Assembly (NCBI GenBank): GCA_963708025.1
Contig: CAVPSB010000034.1
Location: forward strand, 64,001 to 128,000
Source: an uncultured Candidatus Rokubacteria bacterium
Lineage (GTDB): Bacteria; Methylomirabilota; Methylomirabilia; Rokubacteriales; DASRDR01
Direction: 5' to 3'
DNA length: 64,000 bases
In this document: in pieces, positions 3,816-61,543 of the stretch
Layout: every line of letters starts with the position of its first letter
How positions within the stretch are numbered: position 1 is the stretch's first letter
The notes under the pieces: model-generated
Database searches by the model: none
Seen by the model: only the letters and a program-made list of their open reading frames with translations
Told to the model about the DNA's origin: nothing
Position numbers and translations under genes: made by a program

Positions 3816-5657
3816 CTATCCTCCCAGCCGCTGGCGGCGCCGTCCCTCGACCCAGCGCGCGTGCGCGTCGCGGACCTCGGCACGCGCCGAGACCTCCGGC
3901 ACCGGCACGTCCCACCAGGCGCCGCCGGCCTGCGTCGGCGTGGTCGGGTCGGTCTCGATCACGACGACCGTCGTCCGGTCGGCGCGCTTCGCGCGGGCCA
4001 GGGCCGCCTCGAGATCGGCGATCGACTTCACCTGCTCGGCGGCGGCGCCCAGGCTCCGCGCGTGGCCGGCGAAGTCGATGGCCGGCGGCGGGCCATCCTC
4101 GCCGAGGAGGTTGTTGAACGCCGCCCCCCCGGATGCCTGCTGGAGCCGGTGGATGCAGCCGTAGCCGTGGTTGTCGAGGACGACGACGACGAGCTTCGAT
4201 CCCGTCGCGACCGACGTCGCGAGCTCCGAGTTCAGCATCAGGTAGCTGCCGTCCCCGACCATGACGAAGACCTCGCGCTCCGGCAGCGCCAGCTTCACCC
4301 CGAGCCCGCCCGCGATCTCGTAGCCCATGCAGGAGTAGCCGTACTCGAGGTGGTAGCCCTTCGGGTCCCGGGTCCGCCACAGCTTGTGCAGCTCGCCCGG
4401 CAGCCCGCCGGCCGCGCACACCACGACGTCGCGGGGGCCGGCCGCGCGGTTGACGGCGCCGATCACCTGGCCCTCGGTGGGCGGCACCCGGTCGCTGGCC
4501 GCGGTGGCGGCGTCCACCGCGCGGGTCCAGTCGGCGGTCAGGCGCCGCGCGGAGGCGATCCACGCCTCGGGCGCGCGCCAGCCGCCGAGGGCCGCGGTCA
4601 GGTCGCCGAGCCCGCGCCGGCCGTCGCCGACCAGCGGGAGGGCCCCGTGCTTTCGCGCGTCGAAGGCCGCGACGTTCAGGCCGATCAGGGCGACGTCCGG
4701 ATGCTGGAAGAGCGCCCGGGAGCCGGTCGCGAAGTCGCCGAGCCGCGTCCCGACCGCGAGGACGACGTCGGCCTCGACGGCGAGCGCGTTGGCGGCGCTC
4801 GAGCCGGTCACGCCGATCGAGCCGACCGCGCAGGGGTGGTCCCAGGGGAGCGCGCCCTTGCCCGCCTGGGTCTCGGCGACCGGGATGGCGTGGCGCTCGG
4901 CGAACTCGCGGAGCGCGTCCCAGGCGAAGGAGTAGTGGACGCCGCCGCCCGCCACGACGAGGGGCCGGCTCGCGCGGCGCAGCCGCTCGGCCGCCGCCGC
5001 CAGCTGCCCCGGATCCGGGCCGGGCCGGCGGGACCGGTGGACGCGCGGCTCGAAGAAGGCCAGCGGGTAGTCGAACGCCTCGGCCTGGACGTCCTGGGGA
5101 AGCGCCAGCGTCACCGGGCCGCACGCCGCGGGATCCACGAGCGTGTCGATGGCGGCGGGGAGGCTCGCCAGGAGCTGCTCGGGGCGGGTGATCCGGTCCC
5201 AGTAGCGCGAGACCGGGCGGAGGCAGTCGTTGGCGCTCACCGTCGGGTCCCCGAAATTCTCTACCTGTTGCAGGACCGGGTCGGGGCGGCGGGAGGCGAA
5301 GATGTCGCCGGGCAGGAGCAGGACCGGCAGGCGGTTCACGTGGGCGACGGCGGCGGCGGTGACCAGGTTGGTGGCGCCGGGGCCGATCGAGGTCGTGCAC
5401 GCCATGACGCGCCGGCGCGCGTGGGCCTTGGCGAAGGCGATGGCAGCGAGGGCCATCGCTTGCTCGTTGTGGGCGCGCAGCGTCGGCAGCTCGGCTCGCG
5501 CACCCCACAGCGCCTCGCCGAGCCCCGCCACGTTGCCGTGGCCGAAGATGGCCCACACCCCGGCGAAGAGTGGGACCTTGCGGCCGTCGACCTCGCTCCG
5601 CTGAGCGGCGAGATGGCGGACCAGCGCCTGGGCCATCGTGAGCCGAACGGTGCTCAT
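3816..5657 (-). CDS. iolD: 3D-(3,5/4)-trihydroxycyclohexane-1,2-dione acylhydrolase (TPP-dependent)
   Basis: TVRLTMAQAL, IFGHGNVAG, HLEYGYSCMGYE, GDGSYLMLNSE, WWDVPVPEVS. Confidence 0.97.
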   Translation of the reverse strand: MSTVRLTMAQALVRHLAAQRSEVDGRKVPLFAGVWAIFGHGNVAGLGEALWGARAELPTLRAHNEQAMALAAIAFAKAHARRRVMACTTSIGPGATNLVTAAAVAHVNRLPVLLLPGDIFASRRPDPVLQQVENFGDPTVSANDCLRPVSRYWDRITRPEQLLASLPAAIDTLVDPAACGPVTLALPQDVQAEAFDYPLAFFEPRVHRSRRPGPDPGQLAAAAERLRRASRPLVVAGGGVHYSFAWDALREFAERHAIPVAETQAGKGALPWDHPCAVGSIGVTGSSAANALAVEADVVLAVGTRLGDFATGSRALFQHPDVALIGLNVAAFDARKHGALPLVGDGRRGLGDLTAALGGWRAPEAWIASARRLTADWTRAVDAATAASDRVPPTEGQVIGAVNRAAGPRDVVVCAAGGLPGELHKLWRTRDPKGYHLEYGYSCMGYEIAGGLGVKLALPEREVFVMVGDGSYLMLNSELATSVATGSKLVVVVLDNHGYGCIHRLQQASGGAAFNNLLGEDGPPPAIDFAGHARSLGAAAEQVKSIADLEAALARAKRADRTTVVVIETDPTTPTQAGGAWWDVPVPEVSARAEVRDAHARWVEGRRRQRLGG

Positions 5658-51954: not shown

Positions 51955-54136
51955 TCACACCATCTGGATACCGTGGTTCTTCAGCGGGAACGTGCGGATG
52001 CGCCGGCCGGTCGCGTCGAAGTACGCGTTCAGGACCGCCGGCGCCGCCACGCAGATCGTCGGCTCCCCGACCCCGCCCCAGAACCCGCCGGACGGCATGA
52101 TGATCGACTCGACCTTCGGCATCTGCGCGATCCGCATCGAGTCGTAGCTGTGGAAGTTCTCCTGCTCGATGCGGCCGGCCTTGACCGTGCACTCCTCCAT
52201 GAACAGCGCGGACAGGCCGTAGACGAACGACCCGGAGATCTGCCGCTCGATCTGCGCCGGGTTGACGGCATACCCGGAATCGGTCGCGGCGACGATGCGC
52301 CGGACCTTCACCTTGGTGCCGTCGCTGACGGAGATCTCCGCGCACGCCGCCACGTAGCTGCCGAACGCCATCATCTGCGCCAGACCGCGATGCACGCCCT
52401 GCGGCGCCGGCTTGCCCCAGCCCGCGCGATCGGCCACCGCGTTCAGCACGGCCAGGTGCTTGGGATGCTTGCTCATCAGCTTGCGCCGGAACTCGAGCGC
52501 ATCCTGGCCGGCGGCATGCGCCAGCTCGTCCATGAAGCATTCCATGAAGATGGCGTTCTGGTTGATGTTCACGCCGCGCCAGAACCCCGGCGGGACGTGC
52601 GTGTTGCGCATCGCATGGTCGATCAAGAGATTGGGGACGCTGTACCCGAACGCGAAATCACCGCTCGGGTCGAGCCCCTGGAAGGCCAGATTGTCCCTCC
52701 CGTCCTGGAGGTTCTGCGGGAACACGGCCGCGATGATGGACTGGCCGGACAGGCGGCAGTGCAGCCCCGTCAGATTCCCGGCCGCGTCCAGCGCCCCGGT
52801 CAGCTTCGCCTGCATGACCGGGTGATACCGGCCGTGGGTCATGTCCTCCTCGCGCGACCACAGGAGCTTCACGTGCGTGCCCGGAATCTGCTTGGCGATC
52901 AGGACGGCCTGGGTCACGTAGTCGTGGAAGGCCCCCCGCCGGCCGAAGCCGCCACCGAGATTGAGCTTGTAGACCTCGCACTTGTCGGCCGGCAGACCGG
53001 ACGCGGCCAGCGTCGCCGCGAATGCGGCCTCGCCATTCTGCGTCGGGACCCAGACCTCGCAGCGATCCGCCGTGTACTTCGCCGTCGCGTTCATCGGCTC
53101 CATCGGCGCGTGGTTCTGGAACGGATAGGCGTACACCGCCTCGACCTTCTTCGACCGCGCCCGCGATGGCTGCCTTCACGTCGCCGCTCTGGTTGCGCAC
53201 GAAGGCCTGATCGGCATCGAGGCCGGCCTTCAGCATCTCGGCGATCGTCGCGCTCGACACCGCGGCGTTCGGGCCCTCGTCCCAGACGATGGGCAGCGCG
53301 TCGAGCGCGGTCTTCGCCTGCCACCACGTGTCGGCCACGACGGCGACCGCGGAATCGCCGACCGGCACCACGTGCCGGACGCCGGGCATGCCCGTCACCT
53401 TGGCGGCCTCGAAGCTCTTCACCTTGCCGCCGAACACCGGACAGTCCTTGATCGCGGCATTGAGCATCCCGGGGAACCTCAGGTCGAAGCCGTAGACCTG
53501 CGCCCCGGTCACCTTCGGCAGCGTGTCGAGGCGCTTCACCGACTTGCCGATGAGCTTCCAGTCCTTCGGGTCCTTGAGCGCCACGCTCGCCGGCGGGGTC
53601 AGCTTCGCGGCGGCCTCCGCGACCTTGCCGTACGTGGTCGTGCGGCCGGTGGGCTTGTGCGTGATCACGCTGTTGGCGGCGCTGCACTCCGAGGCCGGCA
53701 CCCCCCAGGCGTCGGCCGCGGCCTGGACCAGCATCACCCGCGCGGTGGCGCCGCCCTGGCGGACGTACTCGTGCGACGTCCGGATGCCGCGGCTGCCGCC
53801 CGTGGAGAAATCGCCCCACACGCGCTTGCGCGCGACGCTCTGGCCGGGCGTCGGGTACTCGGTCGTCACCTTCGACCAGTCGCACTCGAGCTCCTCGGCC
53901 ACCATCTGCGCGAGGCCGGTGAGCGTGCCCTGCCCCATCTCGGACCGCGCGATCCGGATCACGACCGTGTCGTCCGGGCGGATGACCACCCAGGCGGTGA
54001 TCTCGGGCGAGCCGTCCTGGGCGCGGACCACGCTCGTGCCGAACGGGATCTTCAGGCCCAGGGCGAGCCCGGCGCCGACGGCGGTGGTGCCCACGATGAA
54101 GGAGCGGCGATCGATCCTCGCAGTCTTGGTGATCAT
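51955..54136 (-). CDS. Xanthine-dehydrogenase-family molybdopterin subunit (IorB-like, Tat; frameshift ~53150)
   Basis: [28 protein letters not shown]. Confidence 0.92.
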
Positions 54137-54149
54137 GGCCCGTTCCCCC

Positions 54150-54600
54150 TTATGCCTTCGCCGCGGCGTGGATCGCTTCGCGCACCTGCTGGAACGTGCC
54201 GCACCGGCAGATGTTCGTGATCGAGGCGTCGATGTCGGCATCGGTCGGCATCGGCTTGTCCTTCAGGAGCGCGGCCACCGCCATGATCATCCCGGACTGG
54301 CAATAGCCGCACTGCGGCACGTCGTGCTCGACCCAGGCCTTCTGCACCTTGTGCAGGACGCCACCGGTGGCGAGGCCTTCGATGGTGGTGATCTGCTTGC
54401 CCTCCACCGCGCCGACGGGCATCACGCAGGAGCGGACCGGCCTGGCCGTCGATGTGCACCGTGCACGCGCCGCACTGCGCCACGCCGCAGCCGTACTTGG
54501 TGCCCGTCAGGCCGACCTGCTCCCGGATGGCCCACAGCAGGGGTGTGCTGGGATCGACGTTGACCTCGCTGGTTCTGCCGTTGATCGTCAGGCGTGCCAT
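54150..54600 (-). CDS. (2Fe-2S) subunit, IorA-like (frameshift ~54440)
   Basis: [28 protein letters not shown]. Confidence 0.92.
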
Positions 54601-54903
54601 GGCTGCTCCTCCCTCAAATCGCGGTTCGGCAAACGTGAACGGCAAGCGATCTCGCGTCGGGGGGTGTCGCGTCGGGACGCGCGCGTGACGCGCGGCGTCG
54701 GCCGGAGCACTCAGGCGTTCGCGCCGACGCCCGATGCTCCGCGCCTCCGAACATACGCCGTCCAACGCACCTGTCGGATCCTCCTGCCGGCGGCCGCGGT
54801 CACCCCGGGCCGTCACCCCGGTGGCCGTCCCCGGGGTGGGATGGAGTGTAGCGCGCCCGGGCCGGACTCCGCAACGCCCCCGTAGGGCGACCCTCCCGGG
54901 GGA

Positions 54904-55965
54904 CTACTCCAGGCCGGTCACCGTGACGTCGAGCATGCGCGTCTGGCGGGGGGCCCGCTGCCACTGCACGAGGATCGGGCTCTGGTAGATGCCCTCGACG
55001 GGCGCGAGGCGGCCGCTCCCCGCTTCGGCCACCAGCAGGCTGATGGACCGCCGCATGCGGAAGAACCGGGCGGCGGGCACGGCCAGCGTGCGCGCCAGCA
55101 CCTTCTCGACGATCGAGCCTTGCAGGCCCAGGGTGTCGAGGCCCGAGTTCAGCACGCGGACGAGGTCGTGCTTCGCGTACCCCAGCGCCTTGCCCGGAAC
55201 GGCTCGCGGGTTCGCGACCGCGTGTCGATAGCCCTCCGCCATGAACCGCACGGGATTCCGGAGGACCGCCGCCAGGTCGTGCTTCATGAGAAGCGTCTCG
55301 AACTCGTTGACCGTGAGCGCCGCGTGCCGCTCGGCCGGATCGAGCGCGATGTGCAGCCGGCCCTTGACGGCCCCGGCCCGGGCCACCAGCTCGCAGAGCT
55401 GGTCGTAGATCCCCAGCCTGGCGTCCTTGATGTTGACCGAATCGATGGGATGCGTGGACACCGGCACGCTGATCCGCGTCTGCTGGATGACGACCTCACG
55501 ATGGAACCCGATCACGCGGGCGAGCCGACGGCGCGAGCGCCCCTCGTTGATGCCGTCCAGATCGACGAAGCAGACGGCCTGGTCGGGGCGGTTCGGATGC
55601 GTCACGCACGGCCGGAGGCCCCCCGCCATGAAGGCGAGGTGGGAGTCGGCATTGCGCGGCTCGACCGCGCGCTGGGCGGCGTCCAGATCCCGCCGCCGCT
55701 CCAGGCGGTCGTGGGCGTACCCGGCCCCCTCCGGGAAGATCCGGCGCAGTGTCTCGACGTAGGTCGGGACGTGCGTCGCGCTGAGCCGCGCCGTGAGGCT
55801 GCGATCGAGGAACCCGGCCGTCGTGTGGGCCGACCAGTACAGGCAGTGTGGGTAGGGCGCCAGGACGTCGTGGTGCTCGCTCGGGAAGCGTGACCGCAGC
55901 TCCACCACGTCGAACCGGGAGCGCGGCGCGATCTCCAGGGTCAGCTCGAGCAGCCCCATCGGCAT
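54904..55965 (-). CDS. Hypothetical protein with two YjbQ-like domains
   Basis: HTTAG...P...YAHD...NADSHL; second half HAALTVNE...GIYQSPIL...RMLDVTVTG. Confidence 0.65.
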   Translation of the reverse strand: MPMGLLELTLEIAPRSRFDVVELRSRFPSEHHDVLAPYPHCLYWSAHTTAGFLDRSLTARLSATHVPTYVETLRRIFPEGAGYAHDRLERRRDLDAAQRAVEPRNADSHLAFMAGGLRPCVTHPNRPDQAVCFVDLDGINEGRSRRRLARVIGFHREVVIQQTRISVPVSTHPIDSVNIKDARLGIYDQLCELVARAGAVKGRLHIALDPAERHAALTVNEFETLLMKHDLAAVLRNPVRFMAEGYRHAVANPRAVPGKALGYAKHDLVRVLNSGLDTLGLQGSIVEKVLARTLAVPAARFFRMRRSISLLVAEAGSGRLAPVEGIYQSPILVQWQRAPRQTRMLDVTVTGLE

Positions 55966-55985
55966 CCGTCCTCTTGGCGGCGCGG

Positions 55986-56738
55986 TCAGGCCCCGGCCCG
56001 GCGCGTCGGCGGCGCCTCGAGGCGTGTGCCCACGACCGCGACCAGCCTGGCGGCCGCCAGCAGCCGGATGACGAGCCACGACGGGTCCAGCTCCGAGCGC
56101 CGGAGGGCGAACTTCGGCGCGCGCGGAAAGGCATGGTGGTTGTTGTGCAGGCTCTCCCCGCCGGTGAGCCAGGCGAGCACGCGGGAATTGTAGGCGGTGT
56201 TCCCGAAGTTCTGGGCGCCCGCCCAGTGTCCCAGGCCGTTGATCAGCGGCCCGATCACGAAGACGAAGAGGATCCCGTGCCCGAGCATGGCCGCCACGCC
56301 CTGCCACCAGCCGAGAGCCAGGCTCACGACCGTCATGCCGATCGCCAGACCGGTCCAGCCCCAGGCGAACAGGCGCCGGTCCCACGCATCCGGGGCGAGG
56401 TCCGGGGCGAACCGCTGCACCGTCTCCGGGTTCCGGGCCTCCCGGACGTAGTAGTACACGTTGCCCAGCTGGACCTTCCAGAAGCCCAGCAGCTGCGGGC
56501 TGTGGGGATCGCCCTCGCGGTCCGTGAACGTGTGGTGCTTCCGGTGGACCGCGACCCATTGCTGTCGGTCCTGGCCGGTCAGTAGCCACAGGACCAGGCG
56601 GAACAGCAAGTCCATGCCCGGTCGCAGCTTGAGCGACCGGTGCGCGAGCGCCCGGTGGAGGTAGATCGAGGTGGCGAAGGTCGCGAGCTGGGACAGCAGG
56701 ATCGCGGTGATCGCGATGATCAGGATCTGACGAGTCAC
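55986..56738 (-). CDS. Membrane fatty acid desaturase (delta-9-like)
   Basis: His boxes HRALAH, HRKHH, HNNHH; GDPHSP. Confidence 0.93.
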   Translation of the reverse strand: MTRQILIIAITAILLSQLATFATSIYLHRALAHRSLKLRPGMDLLFRLVLWLLTGQDRQQWVAVHRKHHTFTDREGDPHSPQLLGFWKVQLGNVYYYVREARNPETVQRFAPDLAPDAWDRRLFAWGWTGLAIGMTVVSLALGWWQGVAAMLGHGILFVFVIGPLINGLGHWAGAQNFGNTAYNSRVLAWLTGGESLHNNHHAFPRAPKFALRRSELDPSWLVIRLLAAARLVAVVGTRLEAPPTRRAGA

Positions 56739-56762
56739 GCTCGTTCCTTTCCGGACCGGCCC

Positions 56763-57670
56763 TCAGACCGAGGGGCTGCCATAGAGGTGCTCCCGGGTGC
56801 GCGGCGCGTGGCCACCCGTCGGGTCACGGTGCTTCCGCATCAGCATCTGGTAGAGGCCGATCGAGCCGCCCTCGAAGGCGACGGCCGAGCACGTCAGGTA
56901 CAGGAGCCACGTCCGGTACGTGCGCTCCCCGACCAGGGCGCGGGCCTCGTCGGCTCTCGCGCGCAGCCGCTCCACCCACTGCCGGCACGTCCGCGCGTAG
57001 TGGAGCCGCAGCCCCTCGACGTCCAGGATCTCCCAATTCGCGCGCTCGGCCTCGGTCAGCGTCTCGCTGAGCCCCGCCAGGTCGCCGTTCGGGAAGACGT
57101 GCCGGTACAGGAACTCGGTCTGGCTGGTGGGCTTCCAGTGGAACTCGTGCACGATCCCGTGGTTGAGGTACAGGCCGCCATCCTTCAGTCGGCTGCGCAC
57201 GCCGCCGAAGAACGCCGGGTAGTTCGGGATCCCCACGTGCTCGATCAGCCCGACCGCGGCGATCTTGTCGTAGGTGACGTCCGGAGCCAGGTCCCGGTAG
57301 TCCCGGTGCTCGACGCGGCAGCGCGCCTGCAGCCCTTCCCTCCGGATGCGGTCGGTGGCGTACGCGGCCTGCTCTCTGCGACAGCGTCACGCCGTGCGCG
57401 TGCACGCCGTAGTGCTGGGCCGCCCAGATCGCCAGGCTGCCCCAGCCGCACCCGATGTCGAGCAGCGTCTCGCCGGGCCGGAGCGCCAGCTTGCGACACA
57501 CCAGGTCGAGCTTGTCCTGCTGCGCCTGGTCGAGCTTGCCGTCCGGATCGCGGTAGTACGCGCACGTGTAGACCATCAGCGGGTCGAGGAAGAGCGCGTA
57601 GAACTCGTTCGAGACGTCGTAGTGGTGGGCGATCGCCTCCTGGTCCCGCTCCCGGCTCGCGCGGCTTCAT
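56763..57670 (-). CDS. Cyclopropane-fatty-acyl synthase-family methyltransferase, catalytic domain only (frameshifts)
   Basis: [12 protein letters not shown]...MVYTCAY...LDIGCGWG...IEHVG...FPNG...HYARTC...WLLYL. Confidence 0.9.
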
Positions 57671-58795
57671 GACGGCACCTCCCGCATCCCGAAGACCGCC
57701 CCCAGGACCACGTGGCGGCGGGTGACCTGCACGCCCAGCATGGTCTGCACCAGCGCCCGGACCATGGCGTCCGGCAGCCGGCCGAGCTGGCGGCCCAGCC
57801 AGCCGGCCTCACCGGTCCCGTAGGCGGCGCACGATCTCCCGCGCGTACGCCTCCAGCGCCACGCCCCGCCGGAGCCGGGCCTCGACGGCCCGGGCGGCGA
57901 GGATGCCGCTCCGGATGGCCGGTCCGATGCCCTCGCCGCTGAGGTCTCGCGCGAGCCCCGCGGCGTCGCCCACGAGGCAGAACCGCTCCCCGGCGAGCCG
58001 CCGCGGCGCTCGGCGCCGGACGACGTAGGCGTGGCCCCGGAACGGCTCGATCGGGAGGTCCGCGGGAAGCCGGCCCGAGGCCCGCAGGGCCTCGACGAGC
58101 CGGCTCCGGCGCTGTCGCAGATCCACGCCGGGTCCCGCGACGCAGCCGATCCCGATGTTGAGGACGTCCTGCTTGGGGAAGAACCAGCCGTAGCCCTTGA
58201 GGTCCGGCTCCACGTAGAGCTCCGGCACCCGGGAGGCCTCCTCGAGAGCCGTCCCCGGGGTCGGCGGCAGCCGCGTCTCGCTCTCCTGGGCGATCACGAC
58301 CTCTTCCTGCTCGGACACCTCGCCGAGCGCGCGGGCCACCGGGCAGAAATGGCCGCCGGCCCCGATGACCACGGACGCCGTGAAGACACCGTCGCCGGTG
58401 ACGAGCTCGATCCGGTCCCCGGCCGGCCTGACCGCGGTCACGCGCGCTCCGTCCTGCACGTCGGCGCCGGCGCCGCGGGCGCGCTCCAGGAGATAGTGGT
58501 CGAACTCCCGCCGGACGATCCCGTAGCTGGCCGGCCGGCGCCAGCGAGTCTCGTGGCGCGCCCCGTCGAACTCGAACCGGCAGGCGGAGAAGGCCTGGAT
58601 GGTGTGCGGATACGTCTCCGGGTCGACCTCGACGTCGGCCAGCGCCTGGGGGGTCACCCAGCCGGCGCAGACCTTCACCCGCGGGAACCGGGCGGCGTCG
58701 AGGACCAGCGGCCGAAGGCCGGCCCGGGCCAGCTGCCAGGCGGCGGAGCTGCCCCCCGGTCCGCCGCCAACGACGACGACCTCGCGATGATCCAC
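57667..58795 (-). CDS. Geranylgeranyl-reductase-family FAD oxidoreductase (frameshift ~57830)
   Basis: VVGGGPGG, FPRVKVCAG, YGWFFPK, VGDAAGL...GEGI; ATGA overlap with the methyltransferase. Confidence 0.9.
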
Positions 58796-58796
58796 G

Positions 58797-59142
58797 TCAG
58801 CCCCGCCACATCGCGAGCAGGATCCGTACGCGGTCGGTCAGCGACACCCGGATCCCCTCGATGCTGTCCGCGATCTTCATCGCCTCGAACAGGTCCCCCT
58901 CGATGTCGAGCGCGCCCTCCACGTAGGCCTCGGCGAAGTTCAGCGGGGTCGGATCGCGGATCAGGCGGACGAACGTCTCGGGCTGGTGCATGACGGCCGT
59001 GCACACCGGCGGGCTCGCTCCCAGGGTCACCAGGGTTCCGTCCCAGAGACGGAAGGCGAACCCGACCGGGACGCCGTCGAACACCCGGTGCAGGATGTCC
59101 GCCGCCCGCCGGGAGGCTGAGTCGCCGCGACAGCCGGGTCAC
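58797..59142 (-). CDS. Stand-alone N-terminal (lipid-binding) domain of a CFA synthase
   Basis: FAFRLWDG...P.PLNFAEAYVEGALDIEGDL; probable frameshift near the start. Confidence 0.75.
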
Positions 59143-59332
59143 CTCTCGGGGATCTCCTCGCGCCGAGTGCTCACCGTTCCACACCCGGCGGGGCCGCCCG
59201 GCACCGTGACCGGACCCCGGAGACCAAGGCGGGCCGGGGCGTCACGCGGACAGGACTCGAAGGTGCGGACTCGACGAAACCGACTGCGGCACCCGGGCCT
59301 CCCCTCGAAGACCGGTCAGAAAAACTCGAGTC

Positions 59333-59512
59333 CCGGGCAGGTTTCCTGACTCTCGGATCACCCTACTCGCCGCCGTCTTCCCGGCACCGCCTGTCCGACG
59401 CCAGTGACTCGATGGCAGCTTTCGTCCCCGATCACAGTGACGGGGTCGTGGCGGATTCGCGCCGCCTTCCCTCTTCGCCCCACAGGGAGCGCACCCGGGA
59501 CCCCTGACAACG
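59333..59512 (-). ncRNA. Cobalamin riboswitch
   Basis: Minus strand AAGAGGGAA-GGCGGCGCGAATCCGCC-ACGACCCCGTCACTGTGA...GGGAAG...GAGAGTCAGGAAACCTGCC (B12 box). Confidence 0.92.
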
Positions 59513-59518
59513 TCGGCG

Positions 59519-59547
59519 ACACTAGCAGACGCCTCCGGCGCGGTCAA
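59519..59547 (-). promoter_or_regulatory. Sigma70 promoter for the riboswitch operon
   Basis: TTGACC-17-TAGTGT with extended TG. Confidence 0.65.
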
Positions 59548-59774: not shown

Positions 59775-60599
59775 ATGGCCGTTCACGCGGGCACCGCCGA
59801 TGTTGACCTCGGACACCCGGCCCGGAGCCGCCCGGCTCGGGACGTCTCCCACCGGTTCCGGCGCCAGCCGGCTGGCAAGGGGGCTTGGCTGTTCCTGGCC
59901 ATCGGCGTCGCGGTCCTTCTCGCGGTGGCCCTGCGCCCGGTGGTCGGGCCGCGGCGCGATCTCGCCCGTGGTGCCCATCCCGAGCCGGCGCCGTCGACGA
60001 CCCGTCAGCTGATCGCGACCCCGCCGATCCTCGCCGACCCACCGGCGATCTCGGACGGCCCAGCGGTGATCCCGGCCGACGCACCGCCGATCCTCGCCGA
60101 CCCGGGGCCGATCTCCACCGAGCCGCCCGCCGCATCGGGTCTCGTGTTCCGGGTCCAGGTCGGGTCGTTCCTCGATCTTCGGAACGCGCTGCGCATGGTC
60201 GAGCGACTACGAGGCGAGGGCCTCCCGGCCGATCTCCGGGTCGCCCAGGGCCATCAGGTGCGGTACCGTGTCCTCGTGACACCTGGGACGGGCGAGACCG
60301 ACGAGAAGCTGCTCGCCCGCCTCAGCGTGCTGGGCGTCTCGGCGACGGCCGTAAACGGGGAATTCGCCGTCACGGGCTTCGTGCCGACCGAGGACGCCGA
60401 CGCGATCGCCAGTCGCCTGGAAGACGAAGCGATCGCGGTGCGCGTCGAGGGGGAGCAGCGGGTGGTCTCCTACCACGCGGTGCGCGTGGGCACCTATCGC
60501 GCGGCTCAGGACGCTGATCGGGCCCGGGTCGAGCTGACCGCTCGCGGGCTGGCGGGGCTCGTCGTGCGGGAATCGGACGACGGCTCCGGAGGCGAGTAA
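59775..60599 (+). CDS. SPOR-domain membrane-anchored protein
   Basis: TM helix; PPILADP repeats; FRVQVGSFLDLRNA...; YHAVRVGTY. Confidence 0.8.
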   Translation: MAVHAGTADVDLGHPARSRPARDVSHRFRRQPAGKGAWLFLAIGVAVLLAVALRPVVGPRRDLARGAHPEPAPSTTRQLIATPPILADPPAISDGPAVIPADAPPILADPGPISTEPPAASGLVFRVQVGSFLDLRNALRMVERLRGEGLPADLRVAQGHQVRYRVLVTPGTGETDEKLLARLSVLGVSATAVNGEFAVTGFVPTEDADAIASRLEDEAIAVRVEGEQRVVSYHAVRVGTYRAAQDADRARVELTARGLAGLVVRESDDGSGGE

Positions 60600-60601
60600 G
60601 C

Positions 60602-61543
60602 TCAGTCCGCGCCGGCCACGGCCTGGGAGAGACGACGCGCCAGCTCGCGATGCCGCGTGAAGTAGTACGCGAGCATGGCCCCCGCCGCGCACAGGTTGGC
60701 GACCGCGACCGCCCAGCCCGCCAGGTGGTCGAACACCCACCGCGCCAGCACGAGAACGACGGCGAAGAATAGCACCTCGAAGCCGAGGTAGAGGACGACC
60801 AGCAGGAAGAAGAACATGGGGTCCCGCTCGGCGCCCGCGACCAGGAGAGCTCCGACGATGCCGAGCACGACGAAGGCGCCCACGTGGACCAGCGTGTACG
60901 AGAGCACCCCGCCGAGCGGATCCGCCTGCCCGAGGAGCGCCTTGGCGAGGATCCGGGGCGTCGTGAGCGGCTCGCCGGCCACCGCGTCGAGGACGAGGAA
61001 CCAGGCCATCACCACGGCCGCGCCGATGAGCCCCGCGACCACGCCCTCGCGCAGCACGGGCCCCGACGCGCCCACGAGGGGCGCCGCCGCCCCCGGGTGG
61101 GCGCGGAGGAAGAACCAGAGCATGCCCACCGCCGCCAGGAGGTTCGCCCCGAGGATGCGCCACCAGACCAGCGCGCCGAGCAGCGAAGGGCCCAGTCGCT
61201 CCAGGACGAGGAAGAACGAGACTTCGAACGCCGCGAACAGGACGACGAAGGCGACGAACATCGCGGGCTCCCGCTCGCTGGTGGCGAGCAGGCTGGCCGC
61301 CACGATGCCGAAGCCCACGAACGCGGCGACGTGGATGAGGGTGTAGCCCAGCACCGGGCCGAGGGCGATCTGGACGGTCGCCGGATCGGCGGCGCCCCGG
61401 AACACGGCCGCGCCGAGGAGGCCCGGGGTCAGGAGCGGCTGCCCGCGGCCCACGTCGAGCACGAGAAACCACAGGGCGACGATGGCGGCGCCGACGACGC
61501 CGGCCAGCACGCCCTCCCGCAGCACCGAGCTCCGCGCGTTCAT
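60602..61543 (-). CDS. Internally duplicated polytopic membrane protein
   Basis: Two copies of VLREGV.AG..GAA.V..WFLVLD...G.PL.TP..L...YTL.H. Confidence 0.8.
   Translation of the reverse strand: MNARSSVLREGVLAGVVGAAIVALWFLVLDVGRGQPLLTPGLLGAAVFRGAADPATVQIALGPVLGYTLIHVAAFVGFGIVAASLLATSEREPAMFVAFVVLFAAFEVSFFLVLERLGPSLLGALVWWRILGANLLAAVGMLWFFLRAHPGAAAPLVGASGPVLREGVVAGLIGAAVVMAWFLVLDAVAGEPLTTPRILAKALLGQADPLGGVLSYTLVHVGAFVVLGIVGALLVAGAERDPMFFFLLVVLYLGFEVLFFAVVLVLARWVFDHLAGWAVAVANLCAAGAMLAYYFTRHRELARRLSQAVAGAD

Follow-up and report, generated by a model that had tools for sequence, protein, structure and literature searches.

Why should a putative membrane-lipid operon be preceded by an RNA that senses vitamin B12? 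The question is raised by a locus in a 64 kb stretch of DNA (the window, meaning the whole stretch that was analysed) from an uncultured soil Rokubacterium of the phylum Methylomirabilota, the closest relatives of whose GGR-family flavoprotein are found in Rokubacteria/Methylomirabilota MAGs (68–80% identity). Downstream of a cobalamin riboswitch, five genes on one strand encode an N-domain of CFA-synthase type, a GGR-family flavoprotein, a methyltransferase, a desaturase and a tandem YjbQ-fold protein (Table 1). The reading that is favoured here, with moderate confidence, is a cobalamin-repressed operon that modifies membrane acyl chains by the steps set out below. The operon probably makes methyl-branched membrane fatty acids, and the linkage of riboswitch and operon would tie B12 supply to membrane composition.

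Riboswitch and operon genes

An earlier note on this DNA, made by a model from the letters alone, had described a promoter, a clear cobalamin riboswitch and five tightly coupled genes. The riboswitch is borne out by the Rfam cobalamin model, as the RF00174 match covers its full length, scores 106.1 bits (gathering score 31.5 bits) and is the sole Rfam match within the window; among 14 lipid-leader aptamers the core is near-invariant, and compensatory changes occur at six of the 46 pairs. The promoter was upheld in part: in the alignment, a block TTGcgG/TTGACG ... TGCTAGTGT is kept at the equivalent leader position in desaturase-type relatives, with the riboswitch present or absent, but a consensus scan returned 0 sites, the TTGACC-17-TAGTGT block included, and the promoter is thus predicted from conservation.

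Table 1. Features of the leader and operon, in the order of transcription
Feature	Coordinates	Strand	Evidence
Predicted sigma-70-type promoter	59519..59547	(-)	-35 TTGACC 59547..59542, 17-nt spacer, -10 TAGTGT 59524..59519
Cobalamin riboswitch aptamer	59319..59513	(-)	RF00174, 106.1 bits, E 1.5e-25, model 1-189 of 189
Expression platform, predicted SD-holding hairpin	59296..59313	(-)	7-bp GGUCUUC / GGAGGCC
Leader uORF	59242..59292	(-)	GTG start 5 nt past SD; 16 codons + TGA
CFA-synthase N-domain, separate ORF	58797..59142	(-)	PF25371 DUF7884, 32.3 bits; frame break near 59112-59116
GGR-family FAD flavoprotein (TmpA-like, putative methylene reductase)	57667..58795	(-)	FAD_binding_3 51 bits; weak GGR_cat
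CFA/CMAS-type SAM methyltransferase, catalytic domain only (TmpB-like)	56763..57670	(-)	PF02353, 145 bits on 3' piece
Membrane fatty-acid desaturase, DesA-like, 250 aa, intact	55986..56738	(-)	PF00487, 73.8 bits
Tandem YjbQ/UPF0047-fold protein, 353 aa, intact	54904..55965	(-)	AlphaFold model, pLDDT 85

For the five genes, the families, the order and the tight junctions all stand (in order, a 1-nt gap, an ATGA overlap of the methyltransferase start with the GGR stop, 24 nt and 20 nt), but the first three are frame-broken in the assembly, with four breaks in total. The N-domain, whose GTG start at 59142 was set by alignment with relatives, has an extra C compared with them, and residues 10–112 of the clean protein from the homologous locus L013 match 59111..58803 (tblastn). 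In the GGR gene the frame changes near 57823, where residues 5–324 (58783..57824) give way to residues 325–375 (57822..57670), and the methyltransferase breaks near 57650 and 57376, with HSPs in two frames. The orthologues of these genes in L013 and L118 are uninterrupted, and the four breaks are therefore probably assembly errors. The clean orthologues also give firmer family matches, the GGR of L013 (5956-7080) scoring 180.4 bits with TIGR02032 (cut-off 158.8) and the clean methyltransferase 308 bits with PF02353.

The methyltransferase aligns with the CFA synthase structures 7QOS (residues 110–378, 235 bits) and 6BQC (residues 118–371). As its alignment begins only at residue 110–118, the split from the N-domain falls at the interdomain linker, with the reductase gene occupying the gap. 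In the published account of E. coli CFA synthase, residues 100–120 form a disordered linker, and the N and C domains remain associated when they are expressed separately (PMC9851988). The desaturase translation shows the histidine boxes HRALAH, HRKHH and HNNHH, and its orthologue matches positions 8–239 of 385 of NF049918 ('DesA family') with 196 bits, under the cut-off of 400. For the last protein, PF01894 falls short of its cut-off of 27 with 20.8 bits and is matched by 16 of the 32 family members at E<=0.1. When its model was compared using Foldseek, all 17 matches at E<=0.001 were chains of YjbQ-family entries, and VIA-align to the YjbQ fold gave Z 11.7–12.9 for residues 2–156 and Z 11.2 on 2P6H for residues 160–352; both halves of the protein are thus predicted to adopt the YjbQ/UPF0047 fold.

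The leader, its recurrence and its origin

The motif ACCGGTCTTCGAGG(G/A)GG.. is conserved 3' of every full lipid-leader aptamer and also 3' of the cobU aptamer, and the pairing of the predicted hairpin is maintained via U-A/U-G exchanges in the window, L013, L045 and L176. The whole-leader fold is no better than that of shuffles (z 0.65) and lends the hairpin no thermodynamic support, so that the hairpin is proposed from conservation; a scan for terminators found none. A short uORF follows the aptamer, ahead of the first gene, and a script search located uORFs of 8–22 codons with an equivalent start in nine of the ten other leaders that carry the platform motif. In L013, L118, L119, L123, L131 and L136 the stop of the uORF and the start of the N-domain gene share an ATGA, and in L122 the leader frame continues straight into the N-domain gene. 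Such coupling is not evident in the window, as its uORF stops 100 nt upstream of the first gene. The window uORF is homologous to that of the cobU leader, the stop of which overlaps the cobU start, and platform and uORF are common to lipid-operon and cobU leaders. Control would be exerted at translation: the hairpin behind the aptamer would bury the SD of the leader ORF, which in relatives would be translationally coupled to the first gene. By analogy with the cobU-cobT leader, which has the same SD-sequestering hairpin and uORF platform, B12 should repress the operon, its binding switching expression off. In five relatives, the remaining riboswitches lie upstream of cobU-cobT, CbiA-type, TonB-receptor and similar genes.

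The expectation that the riboswitch would recur at homologous loci holds for a part of them. Among 134 such loci, 15 carry full riboswitches, in three others a contig end cuts through the riboswitch, and 18 retain remnants; 20 metagenome loci contributed 12 of the full Rfam matches (92–115 bits) and the three cut ones, and further full aptamers are present in L013 and L045. The 15 full aptamers form 13 clusters at 97% identity. Every riboswitch-bearing locus of known gene content is of the desaturase type, and a riboswitch or remnant is present at 23 of 50 assessable desaturase-type loci versus none of 33 desaturase-less loci (Fisher p 6.5e-7, with loci that are not independent). However, the riboswitch is absent or truncated at 42 of the 50 desaturase-type loci, 27 of which show no trace of it, and full and lost states stand side by side on a quick GGR tree. 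B12 control of the operon is therefore dispensable.

The window aptamer is 82–84% identical to the cobU-cobT aptamer of its own genome and merely 64–74% identical to the other lipid aptamers; it groups with its own cobU aptamer with a tree support of 0.999, and the identity between the two leaders persists to the end of the uORF and falls off beyond it. Over the stretch between the -10 box and the uORF, both included, the window leader is thus a copy of the cobU leader of its own genome. It displaced an earlier riboswitch of the lipid operon, of a different sequence type, which was already at that position in the clade.

Proposed lipid chemistry and possible reasons for B12 control

In the favoured reading, the DesA-like desaturase would make, or further modify, a cis double bond, to which the CFA-type methyltransferase would add a SAM-derived methylene, its separately encoded N-domain and catalytic domain associating in trans. 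A methyl branch in mid-chain would result once the GGR-type flavoprotein has reduced this methylene, in line with the tmpBA pathway for 10-methyl-16:0, and the tandem YjbQ-fold protein would be a conserved accessory. The pairing of a CFA-type methyltransferase with a flavin reductase, to which the earlier note had pointed, agrees with the tmp-type arrangement as described by Blitzblau et al. 2021 (PMC7791843), and the two genes adjoin in 50 of 53 split-type loci (L004–L056), the other three of which end at the GGR gene, and in 25 of 27 loci (L057–L083). Within the phylum there is a precedent, as 10MeC16:0 is given as a typical lipid of Ca. Methylomirabilis (PMC6581649, citing Kool 2012). Other chemistry would be conceivable, in which the methyltransferase yields a cyclopropane or methyl-alkene with the GGR acting on another double bond, or in which the desaturase acts after methylation; the latter would suit 10MeC16:1 delta-7, a 10-methyl-16:1 also reported from Ca. 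Methylomirabilis (PMC6581649). The methyltransferase keeps the general CFAS catalytic domain, which can be aligned over its whole length with true cyclopropane synthases, so that a cyclopropane may be its product, and the desaturase looks like an add-on and not an obligatory first step at a family of loci of which 33 lack it. TmpA, moreover, was inactive in the sole test in the account of Blitzblau et al., where its activity is never demonstrated (PMC7791843). Such chemistry is nevertheless doubtful, as the strict pairing of methyltransferase and reductase families across phyla is hard to explain without reduction of the product, and TmpB in E. coli is described as yielding 10-methylene-16:0 and not cyclopropane (PMC7791843). 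That three of the five genes are frame-broken could also mean that the operon is dead, a pseudogene cluster in the host genome. This is highly improbable: the unrelated neighbouring genes for aldehyde-oxidoreductase subunits (51955-54816) are broken in like manner, the genome of 8.17 Mb in only 49 contigs would suggest a long-read assembly, and the pieces stay 61–84% identical to the intact L013 proteins up to each break in tblastn, similarity not being lost early.

In the classical view, the members of B12 regulons that are not cob genes, such as metE and nrd, encode B12-independent isozymes. By this logic, the operon would be a B12-independent substitute, on at B12 scarcity, for a B12-dependent enzyme giving an equivalent lipid modification, such as a lipid methylase of the B12-binding radical-SAM kind, an enzyme that modifies hopanoids or an acyl-CoA mutase supplying branched primers. 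The earlier note knew of no description of a lipid pathway of this kind under B12 regulation, but there is a precedent: the metagenome study of Kazanov et al. 2007 describes a B12 riboswitch upstream of an ole1/COG1398 desaturase and proposes isozyme logic for it (PMC2211319). B12 scarcity would be a real state for the host, since no CbiC was found in its genome, rated 99.67% complete; it likely salvages corrinoids, B12 thus being an external variable. In the six genomes examined, the lipid operon is the sole riboswitch target other than B12 salvage or transport, and the host genome holds at least seven B12-binding radical-SAM genes, including HpnJ (770.6 bits using hmmscan, 773.4 bits in the genome search), and two acyl-CoA mutase large subunits. 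Substitution is unlikely all the same. The B12-dependent radical-SAM lipid methylase that the earlier note implied did not emerge, as hmmscan of the host genome brought none of the unassigned B12-binding radical-SAM proteins to a lipid-methylase cut-off. Nor does co-occurrence favour a counterpart: the lineage-matched orthologue of C19, one such protein with non-lipid neighbours, is missing from two of three full-riboswitch genomes, and HpnJ is near-universal, occurring in 26 of 31 genomes irrespective of operon type. That the riboswitch is so often lost also speaks against an essential coupling. This loss, together with the paralogy of the window leader to the cobU leader, would suit a non-adaptive passenger copied in by recombination and decaying as in most relatives; remnants and trace-free loci are numerous, and the sister loci L122, where the riboswitch is full, and L127, where it has an internal deletion, are set apart by branch lengths of only 0.013 each. 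A passenger is very unlikely, as the full aptamers retain 92–115 bits and their near-invariant core, the window copy took the place of an older type, riboswitch for riboswitch, and the platform and uORF are intact.

Comparison with known systems

As in the metE, nrd and ole1/COG1398 cases (PMC2211319), RF00174 precedes a gene outside B12 synthesis and transport. Unlike metE and nrd, the operon has no known B12-dependent counterpart; the ole1/COG1398 case, compared by its description, likewise places a fatty-acid desaturase under B12 control, whereas the desaturase here comes fourth among the five genes of a probable lipid-methylation operon. E. coli CFA synthase consists of these two domains as well, with the catalytic domain of the window aligning over residues 118–371, but is a single chain, whereas the window encodes two polypeptides apart, with a split matching linker 100–120 (PMC9851988), and its product is probably not a cyclopropane. 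With bfaAB/tms of actinomycetes, which make 10-methyl-stearate, the operon would have in common the two-step logic of CFA-type methylenation followed by reduction; BfaA, however, is of the FAD oxidase type and is described as not homologous to TmpA, which is similar to archaeal geranylgeranyl reductases (PMC7791843), and the window reductase is of the GGR type. The closest likeness, by description, is to tmpBA of Desulfobacteraceae and gamma-proteobacteria (PMC7791843), in which a CFA-family SAM methyltransferase likewise adjoins a geranylgeranyl-reductase-family flavoprotein, and the expected product is likewise a 10-methylene and then a 10-methyl fatty acid on a cis-unsaturated acyl chain. 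Compared with tmpBA, the methyltransferase of the window is divided into two ORFs, the order is N-domain, GGR and methyltransferase instead of tmpB followed by tmpA, and a desaturase, a tandem YjbQ-fold gene and an upstream cobalamin riboswitch are added.

Operon layout and gene products

The cobalamin riboswitch that the earlier note had called clear was borne out by the Rfam search, in which RF00174, the sole Rfam family in the 64-kb window, was matched with 106.1 bits (gathering score 31.5) over model positions 1-189 of 189. The five tightly coupled genes claimed downstream of it were also recovered on the same strand, with junctions, in order, of a 1-nt gap, an ATGA overlap, 24 nt and 20 nt, and they are treated as one unit because the next gene on that strand lies ~300 nt away and a convergent gene comes after the operon in L013, an uninterrupted orthologous operon. 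As for the proposed promoter, its sequence block is kept in the leaders of related loci with or without a riboswitch, and in the leader alignment it is common to all desaturase-type loci, but a consensus scan for promoters returned 0 sites, so that the promoter is placed by conservation. The consensus scan for terminators likewise returned 0 sites.

Features of the lipid operon and its surroundings in the window
Feature	Coordinates	Strand	Remark
Putative promoter, TTGACC and TAGTGT, 17 nt apart	59547..59542, 59524..59519	-	from conservation across relatives' leaders only
Cobalamin riboswitch (RF00174)	59513..59319	-	
Leader uORF	59292..59242	-	
CFA-synthase N-domain ORF (DUF7884)	59142..58797	-	first gene of operon
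GGR-family flavoprotein	58795..57667	-	second gene of operon
CMAS-type methyltransferase domain	57670..56763	-	third gene of operon
Fatty-acid desaturase	56738..55986	-	fourth gene of operon
353-aa tandem YjbQ-fold protein (predicted fold)	55965..54904	-	fifth gene of operon
Aldehyde oxidoreductase/xanthine dehydrogenase-type genes	51955..54816	-	2Fe-2S and molybdopterin subunits
Protein with two SPOR repeats (61 bits)	59775..60599	+	divergent from the riboswitch promoter
313-aa multi-pass membrane protein	60602..61543	-	beside the SPOR protein; internal duplication; no Pfam family

In this copy of the operon the reading frame is broken once in the N-domain gene, once in the gene of the geranylgeranyl-reductase-family flavoprotein (GGR) and twice in that of the CFA/CMAS-type methyltransferase catalytic domain (MT). 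Three of the four breaks are single extra bases relative to related loci, and the pieces of the broken genes remain 61-84% identical to the intact L013 proteins right up to the breaks. The neighbouring aldehyde oxidoreductase/xanthine dehydrogenase-type genes are each likewise split between frames, and 1-nt indels seem to be frequent in this assembly (8.17 Mb in 49 contigs). From the similarly broken neighbours, the state of the assembly and the retained identity, we infer that the four breaks are assembly indels; that they are real and that the operon is dead in this genome is considered very improbable. Clean gene models were taken from L013, with an N-domain of 113 aa, a GGR of 375 aa, an MT of ~300 aa starting at a GTGA overlap, a desaturase of ~250 aa and a YjbQ-like protein of 353 aa.

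The clean GGR orthologue exceeded the cut-off of TIGR02032, 'geranylgeranyl reductase family' (180.4 against 158.8 bits), and the clean MT orthologue matched PF02353 with 308 bits, above the cut-off. Since the alignment of the MT starts at residue 110 of the CFA synthase 7QOS (residues 110-378) and at residue 118 of Escherichia coli CFAS 6BQC (residues 118-371), this ORF holds the catalytic domain only, while the N-domain ORF matches DUF7884 and the first ~80 residues of a CfaB model. The two domains are thus encoded by separate ORFs (113 and ~300 aa) with the 375-aa gene between them, whereas cyclopropane fatty-acid synthase proper carries both in one chain. In E. coli CFAS, residues 100-120 are described as a disordered linker (PMC9851988), and the N and C domains are described as remaining together when expressed separately (PMC9851988, citing Hari 2018). 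By analogy, a natural split exactly at the CFAS linker makes it plausible that the N-domain and MT ORFs assemble in trans as one enzyme.

The desaturase matches PF00487 (73.8 bits) and carries the histidine boxes HRALAH, HRKHH and HNNHH in translation; against the DesA family model NF049918 its 196 bits fall short of the cut-off of 400, with coverage restricted to profile positions 8-239 of 385, and its delta-9 specificity is presumed. For the last protein no family rose above threshold in profile searches, PF01894 giving 20.8 bits, below its gathering score of 27, although the same profile was matched by 16 of 32 relatives at E<=0.1 (best E 3.2e-5), and a phmmer search of the PDB gave a chance match only (E 1). 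An AlphaFold model from a shallow alignment (27 sequences, >=70% identical) had a pLDDT of 49 and was discarded; a deeper alignment raised this to 85. With the latter model, Foldseek returned 17 significant PDB matches, all of them chains of YjbQ/UPF0047 entries, with residues 2-156 aligned to eight YjbQ entries (Z 11.7-12.9) and residues 160-352 to 2P6H (Z 11.2, rmsd 2.7 over 123 residues). In the predicted structure the YjbQ fold is present twice, and the description of a tandem YjbQ-like protein was therefore right at the level of fold.

Linkage, decay and replacement of the riboswitch

The riboswitch state was scored by one nhmmer rule at 134 loci, comprising the window, 53 genome loci and the best 80 of 102 confirmed metagenome loci found by an N-domain search, with remnants below E 1e-5 counted as 'none'; some MAG loci occur a second time among the metagenome contigs, as shown by identical GGR rows.

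Riboswitch state by nhmmer at loci with different downstream genes
Loci	Number	Full	Cut by contig end	Partial	None	Not assessable
All	134	15	3	18	92	6
Desaturase-type	51	6	2	15	27	1
No desaturase downstream	34	0	0	0	33	1
Downstream unknown	49	9	1	3	32	4

The synteny of riboswitch, desaturase, CFA-type and GGR genes, for which the earlier note had proposed a search, recurs: a riboswitch or a remnant of one is present at 23 of the 50 assessable desaturase-type loci and at 0 of the 33 without a desaturase (Fisher p 6.5e-7, a value that overstates independence as the loci are related). Of 11 genome loci searched with Rfam, two carry a full riboswitch, L013 at 106.8 bits and L045 at 101.4 bits, and L008 was matched weakly (32.1 bits). 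Applied to 20 of the 80 metagenome loci, picked for having nhmmer matches, Rfam returned 12 uncut matches of 92-115 bits, three of 70-98 bits cut by the contig end and four weak ones of 32-40 bits with internal deletions, with no match in L167. The 15 full aptamers fall into 13 clusters at 97% identity, and their core is almost invariant, with compensatory change in 6 of 46 pairs. No match was obtained with Rfam at 11 loci of Binatia, Acidobacteria and Proteobacteria, nor at loci of these groups with an nhmmer model built from Rokubacteria, which is insensitive to distant riboswitches.

At several desaturase-type loci the aptamer is reduced to its 5' half or to still smaller pieces. On the GGR tree, which was built with a quick search only, full, partial and absent states are interleaved within the desaturase clade, the starred branches require at least four changes for the 'full' state, and sister pairs such as L122, with a full riboswitch, and L127, with an internally deleted one, are found. 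On the simplest reading, the riboswitch is ancestral to the desaturase-type operon and has decayed many times. Thirteen loci (L017, L142, L146, L148, L150, L151, L160 and L169-L174), nine of which form one clade on the GGR tree, have kept one and the same 5' stretch of the aptamer (HMM positions 4/5 to 124/128), which ends ~10 nt before the N-domain start; this may go back to a single inherited deletion, or the leader may have been retained for a different role. Where the riboswitch would be, L015 has a different leader of ~200 nt (~5430-5630), for which Rfam returned nothing even at E<=1.

The genome from which the window comes contains two strong riboswitches, before the lipid operon and before cobU-cobT, and one weak match. 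The two strong leaders share 84% identity across a stretch of 247 nt in which the -10 region is included, and their aptamers, 82% identical in the multiple alignment, are sisters with a support of 0.999. Towards the other lipid-leader aptamers, which are 80-99% identical among themselves, the window aptamer shows an identity of no more than 64-74%, and the identity to the cobU leader runs through the Shine-Dalgarno sequence and the uORF to the GTGA, where it drops. By the sister relationship, the low identity to other lipid aptamers and the extent of the identity, the leader of the lipid operon in this genome is a copy of the cobU leader that replaced a riboswitch of the older type, through recombination or gene conversion. 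Such a leader swap argues that this lineage has held on to B12 control, which others have lost.

Sign of regulation and the B12 biology of the host

On sequence grounds, the lipid leader is predicted to function as a riboswitch that binds cobalamin and alters expression. A conserved stretch follows every full lipid-leader aptamer as well as the cobU aptamer of the same genome, and this platform is conserved in the cobU leader and in the 14 other lipid leaders examined. It comprises a 7-bp hairpin (GGUCUUC / GGAGGCC in the window) that contains a Shine-Dalgarno sequence, with a start codon 5-6 nt downstream. From this start a uORF of 8-22 codons extends in nine of the ten other leaders with a script-found motif, and its stop overlaps the N-domain start (ATGA) in L013, L118, L119, L123, L131 and L136; L122 lacks the uORF, and there this Shine-Dalgarno sequence directly serves the start of the N-domain gene. 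In the window the coupling is less clear, since the uORF ends 100 nt before the first gene. The cobU-cobT genes are preceded by the same platform and by a homologous 16-codon uORF with a GTGA overlap with cobU, and by analogy with this shared arrangement B12 would repress the lipid operon at translation initiation. When the 206 nt of leader after the aptamer were folded thermodynamically, the result did not surpass that of shuffled sequences (z 0.65), and a possible loop-loop contact between the GCGAA loop of the aptamer and the UUCG of the platform is only suggested by inspection of the alignments.

CbiC was not found in the host genome, which is rated 99.67% complete with 8.18% contamination, and de novo corrin synthesis is therefore probably lacking; the genome does encode cobU and cobT. 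The other riboswitches of five relatives precede cobU-cobT, a CbiA-type gene and TonB-dependent receptors, and one further riboswitch precedes a locus read by eye as BtuF-like; none was found in these relatives before metE or nrd among the 137-150 candidates scored of several hundred, where weak sites may be missed. At the corrinoid salvage locus of the host, two riboswitches (contig C3, 42113-42306 and 47264-47348) stand ~4.5-5 kb apart, as they do in the relatives G001, G002, G003 and G005, one before cobU-cobT and one before a TonB-dependent receptor, the second being weak in the genome of the window (26 bits). This genome encodes a full-length MetE (474.7 bits), and ~19 further Meth_synt_2-domain matches were noted; no full-length MetH was found in it, and adjacent, separate homocysteine-methyltransferase and corrinoid-binding pieces lie on contig C13 (13741-15476). 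Its B12-dependent proteins include two acyl-CoA mutase large subunits with small subunits and a corrinoid protein, and they further include HpnJ, a CUAEP-tail radical-SAM protein, a TIGR03960 protein and four unassigned B12-binding radical-SAM proteins.

B12 riboswitches serve to reveal B12-dependent functions of the cell, and to our knowledge their accepted targets beyond B12 synthesis and uptake are B12-independent isozymes. It is by analogy with such isozymes that the operon may be read as a B12-independent substitute, switched on when B12 is scarce, for a B12-dependent lipid function, and the same idea was voiced in 2007 for a riboswitch-controlled ole1 desaturase (PMC2211319), a case already in print when the earlier note knew of no described B12 regulation of such a lipid pathway. 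In these corrinoid-salvaging soil Rokubacteria, B12 scarcity would then turn on O2-dependent desaturation and SAM-dependent mid-chain methylation in place of a hypothetical B12-dependent function in membrane lipids, for which an unassigned B12-binding radical-SAM protein, HpnJ-dependent hopanoid tailoring or mutase-fed branched primers would be the candidates.

The radical-SAM lipid methylase that the note expected elsewhere in the genome did not appear, however, as none of the B12-binding radical-SAM proteins of the host reaches a lipid-methylase cut-off. One of them, C19, has orthologues in 12 of the 16 genomes with a desaturase-type operon and in 3 of the other 15, a comparison limited by the incompleteness of the MAGs; although it follows the desaturase clade, it is absent from G001 and G002 (incomplete MAGs) despite their full riboswitches, and its gene neighbours include no lipid genes. 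HpnJ is near-universal (26 of 31 genomes, incomplete MAGs among them). The proposed co-occurrence consequently failed to emerge: neither C19 nor HpnJ separates the riboswitch states, although only three genomes have full riboswitches and the MAGs are incomplete. By reasoning alone, SAM should also become more costly at low B12, which runs against an operon that would be active in just that state. A substitute for a B12-dependent lipid function is held to be unlikely; if it were true, it would, together with the 2007 ole1 case, mean that the modification of acyl chains is a recurring part of B12 regulons that has been overlooked.

Relation to known lipid-methylation systems

Published work already covers the riboswitch family, the tmp-type pair and the notion that B12 controls desaturases. 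In the literature searched, outside which many subscription papers lie, we found no cobalamin riboswitch before a tmp-type methylation operon, no restriction of a riboswitch to a variant with desaturase and YjbQ genes, no repeated riboswitch decay at such an operon, no leader swap from cobU to a lipid operon and no naturally split CFA-type enzyme. Searches joining cobalamin riboswitch with cyclopropane and desaturase, or 10-methylhexadecanoic acid with Methylomirabilis and methyltransferase, returned nothing, those on Rokubacteria fatty acids and cobalamin nothing relevant, and those on tmpA/tmpB nothing beyond PMC7791843. The linkage of riboswitch and lipid operon recurs in 13 or more separate lineages of a soil phylum that is abundant and uncultured, is confined to the desaturase-bearing variant and was renewed in this genome by the leader swap. 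It indicates that the supply of B12 and the composition of the membrane are connected in a way for which no known enzyme accounts; were this connection regulatory noise, the repeated decay would still clearly illustrate the turnover of riboswitches.

Two routes to 10-methyl fatty acids, bfaAB and tmpBA, are described by Blitzblau et al. (2021; PMC7791843), who report that bfaAB encodes a methyltransferase and an FAD oxidase-type reductase, that tmpBA is known from Desulfobacteraceae and gamma-proteobacteria, that TmpB yielded 10-methylene-16:0 in E. coli and that BfaA is not homologous to TmpA. The earlier note had named tms/bfa- and tmp-type systems together; the GGR-type reductase beside a CFA-type methyltransferase agrees with the tmp type and not with BfaA, which is of the FAD oxidase type. 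Among the genome loci, which are the best 80 of 442 confirmed GGR relatives, MT and GGR adjoin in 75 of 80. In L004-L056, from Rokubacteria, Binatia and some Thermodesulfobacteriota or delta-proteobacteria, the order is N-domain, GGR, MT in 53 of 53, with the MT present in 50 and the contig ending at the GGR in the other three. In the more distant L057-L083, from Acidobacteria and Proteobacteria, the MT is one gene and lies directly upstream of the GGR in 25 of 27, i.e. in tmpB-then-tmpA order. L011 has the YjbQ-like gene directly after the MT and no detectable desaturase, so that these two additions are not strictly inseparable.

10MeC16:0 and 10MeC16:1 delta-7 are given as typical lipids of Ca. 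Methylomirabilis (PMC6581649, citing Kool 2012), which by analogy would provide a precedent within the phylum for the predicted 10-methyl product, and the operon offers candidates for the genes behind the 10-methyl fatty acids that serve as biomarkers of this phylum. The arrangement of L004-L056 reflects fission of, or insertion into, a gene at precisely the interdomain linker of CFAS, and it provides a naturally linker-split CFA-type enzyme whose partner reductase is encoded in the gap. Like tmpBA, the window pairs a CFA-family methyltransferase with an adjoining GGR-family flavoprotein; unlike tmpBA, in which a single-chain TmpB is followed by TmpA, it has the order N-domain, GGR, MT and a split enzyme. 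From the two gene-order groups among the 80 best GGR loci, the operon would be a split, re-ordered variant of tmpBA with a predicted 10-methyl product.
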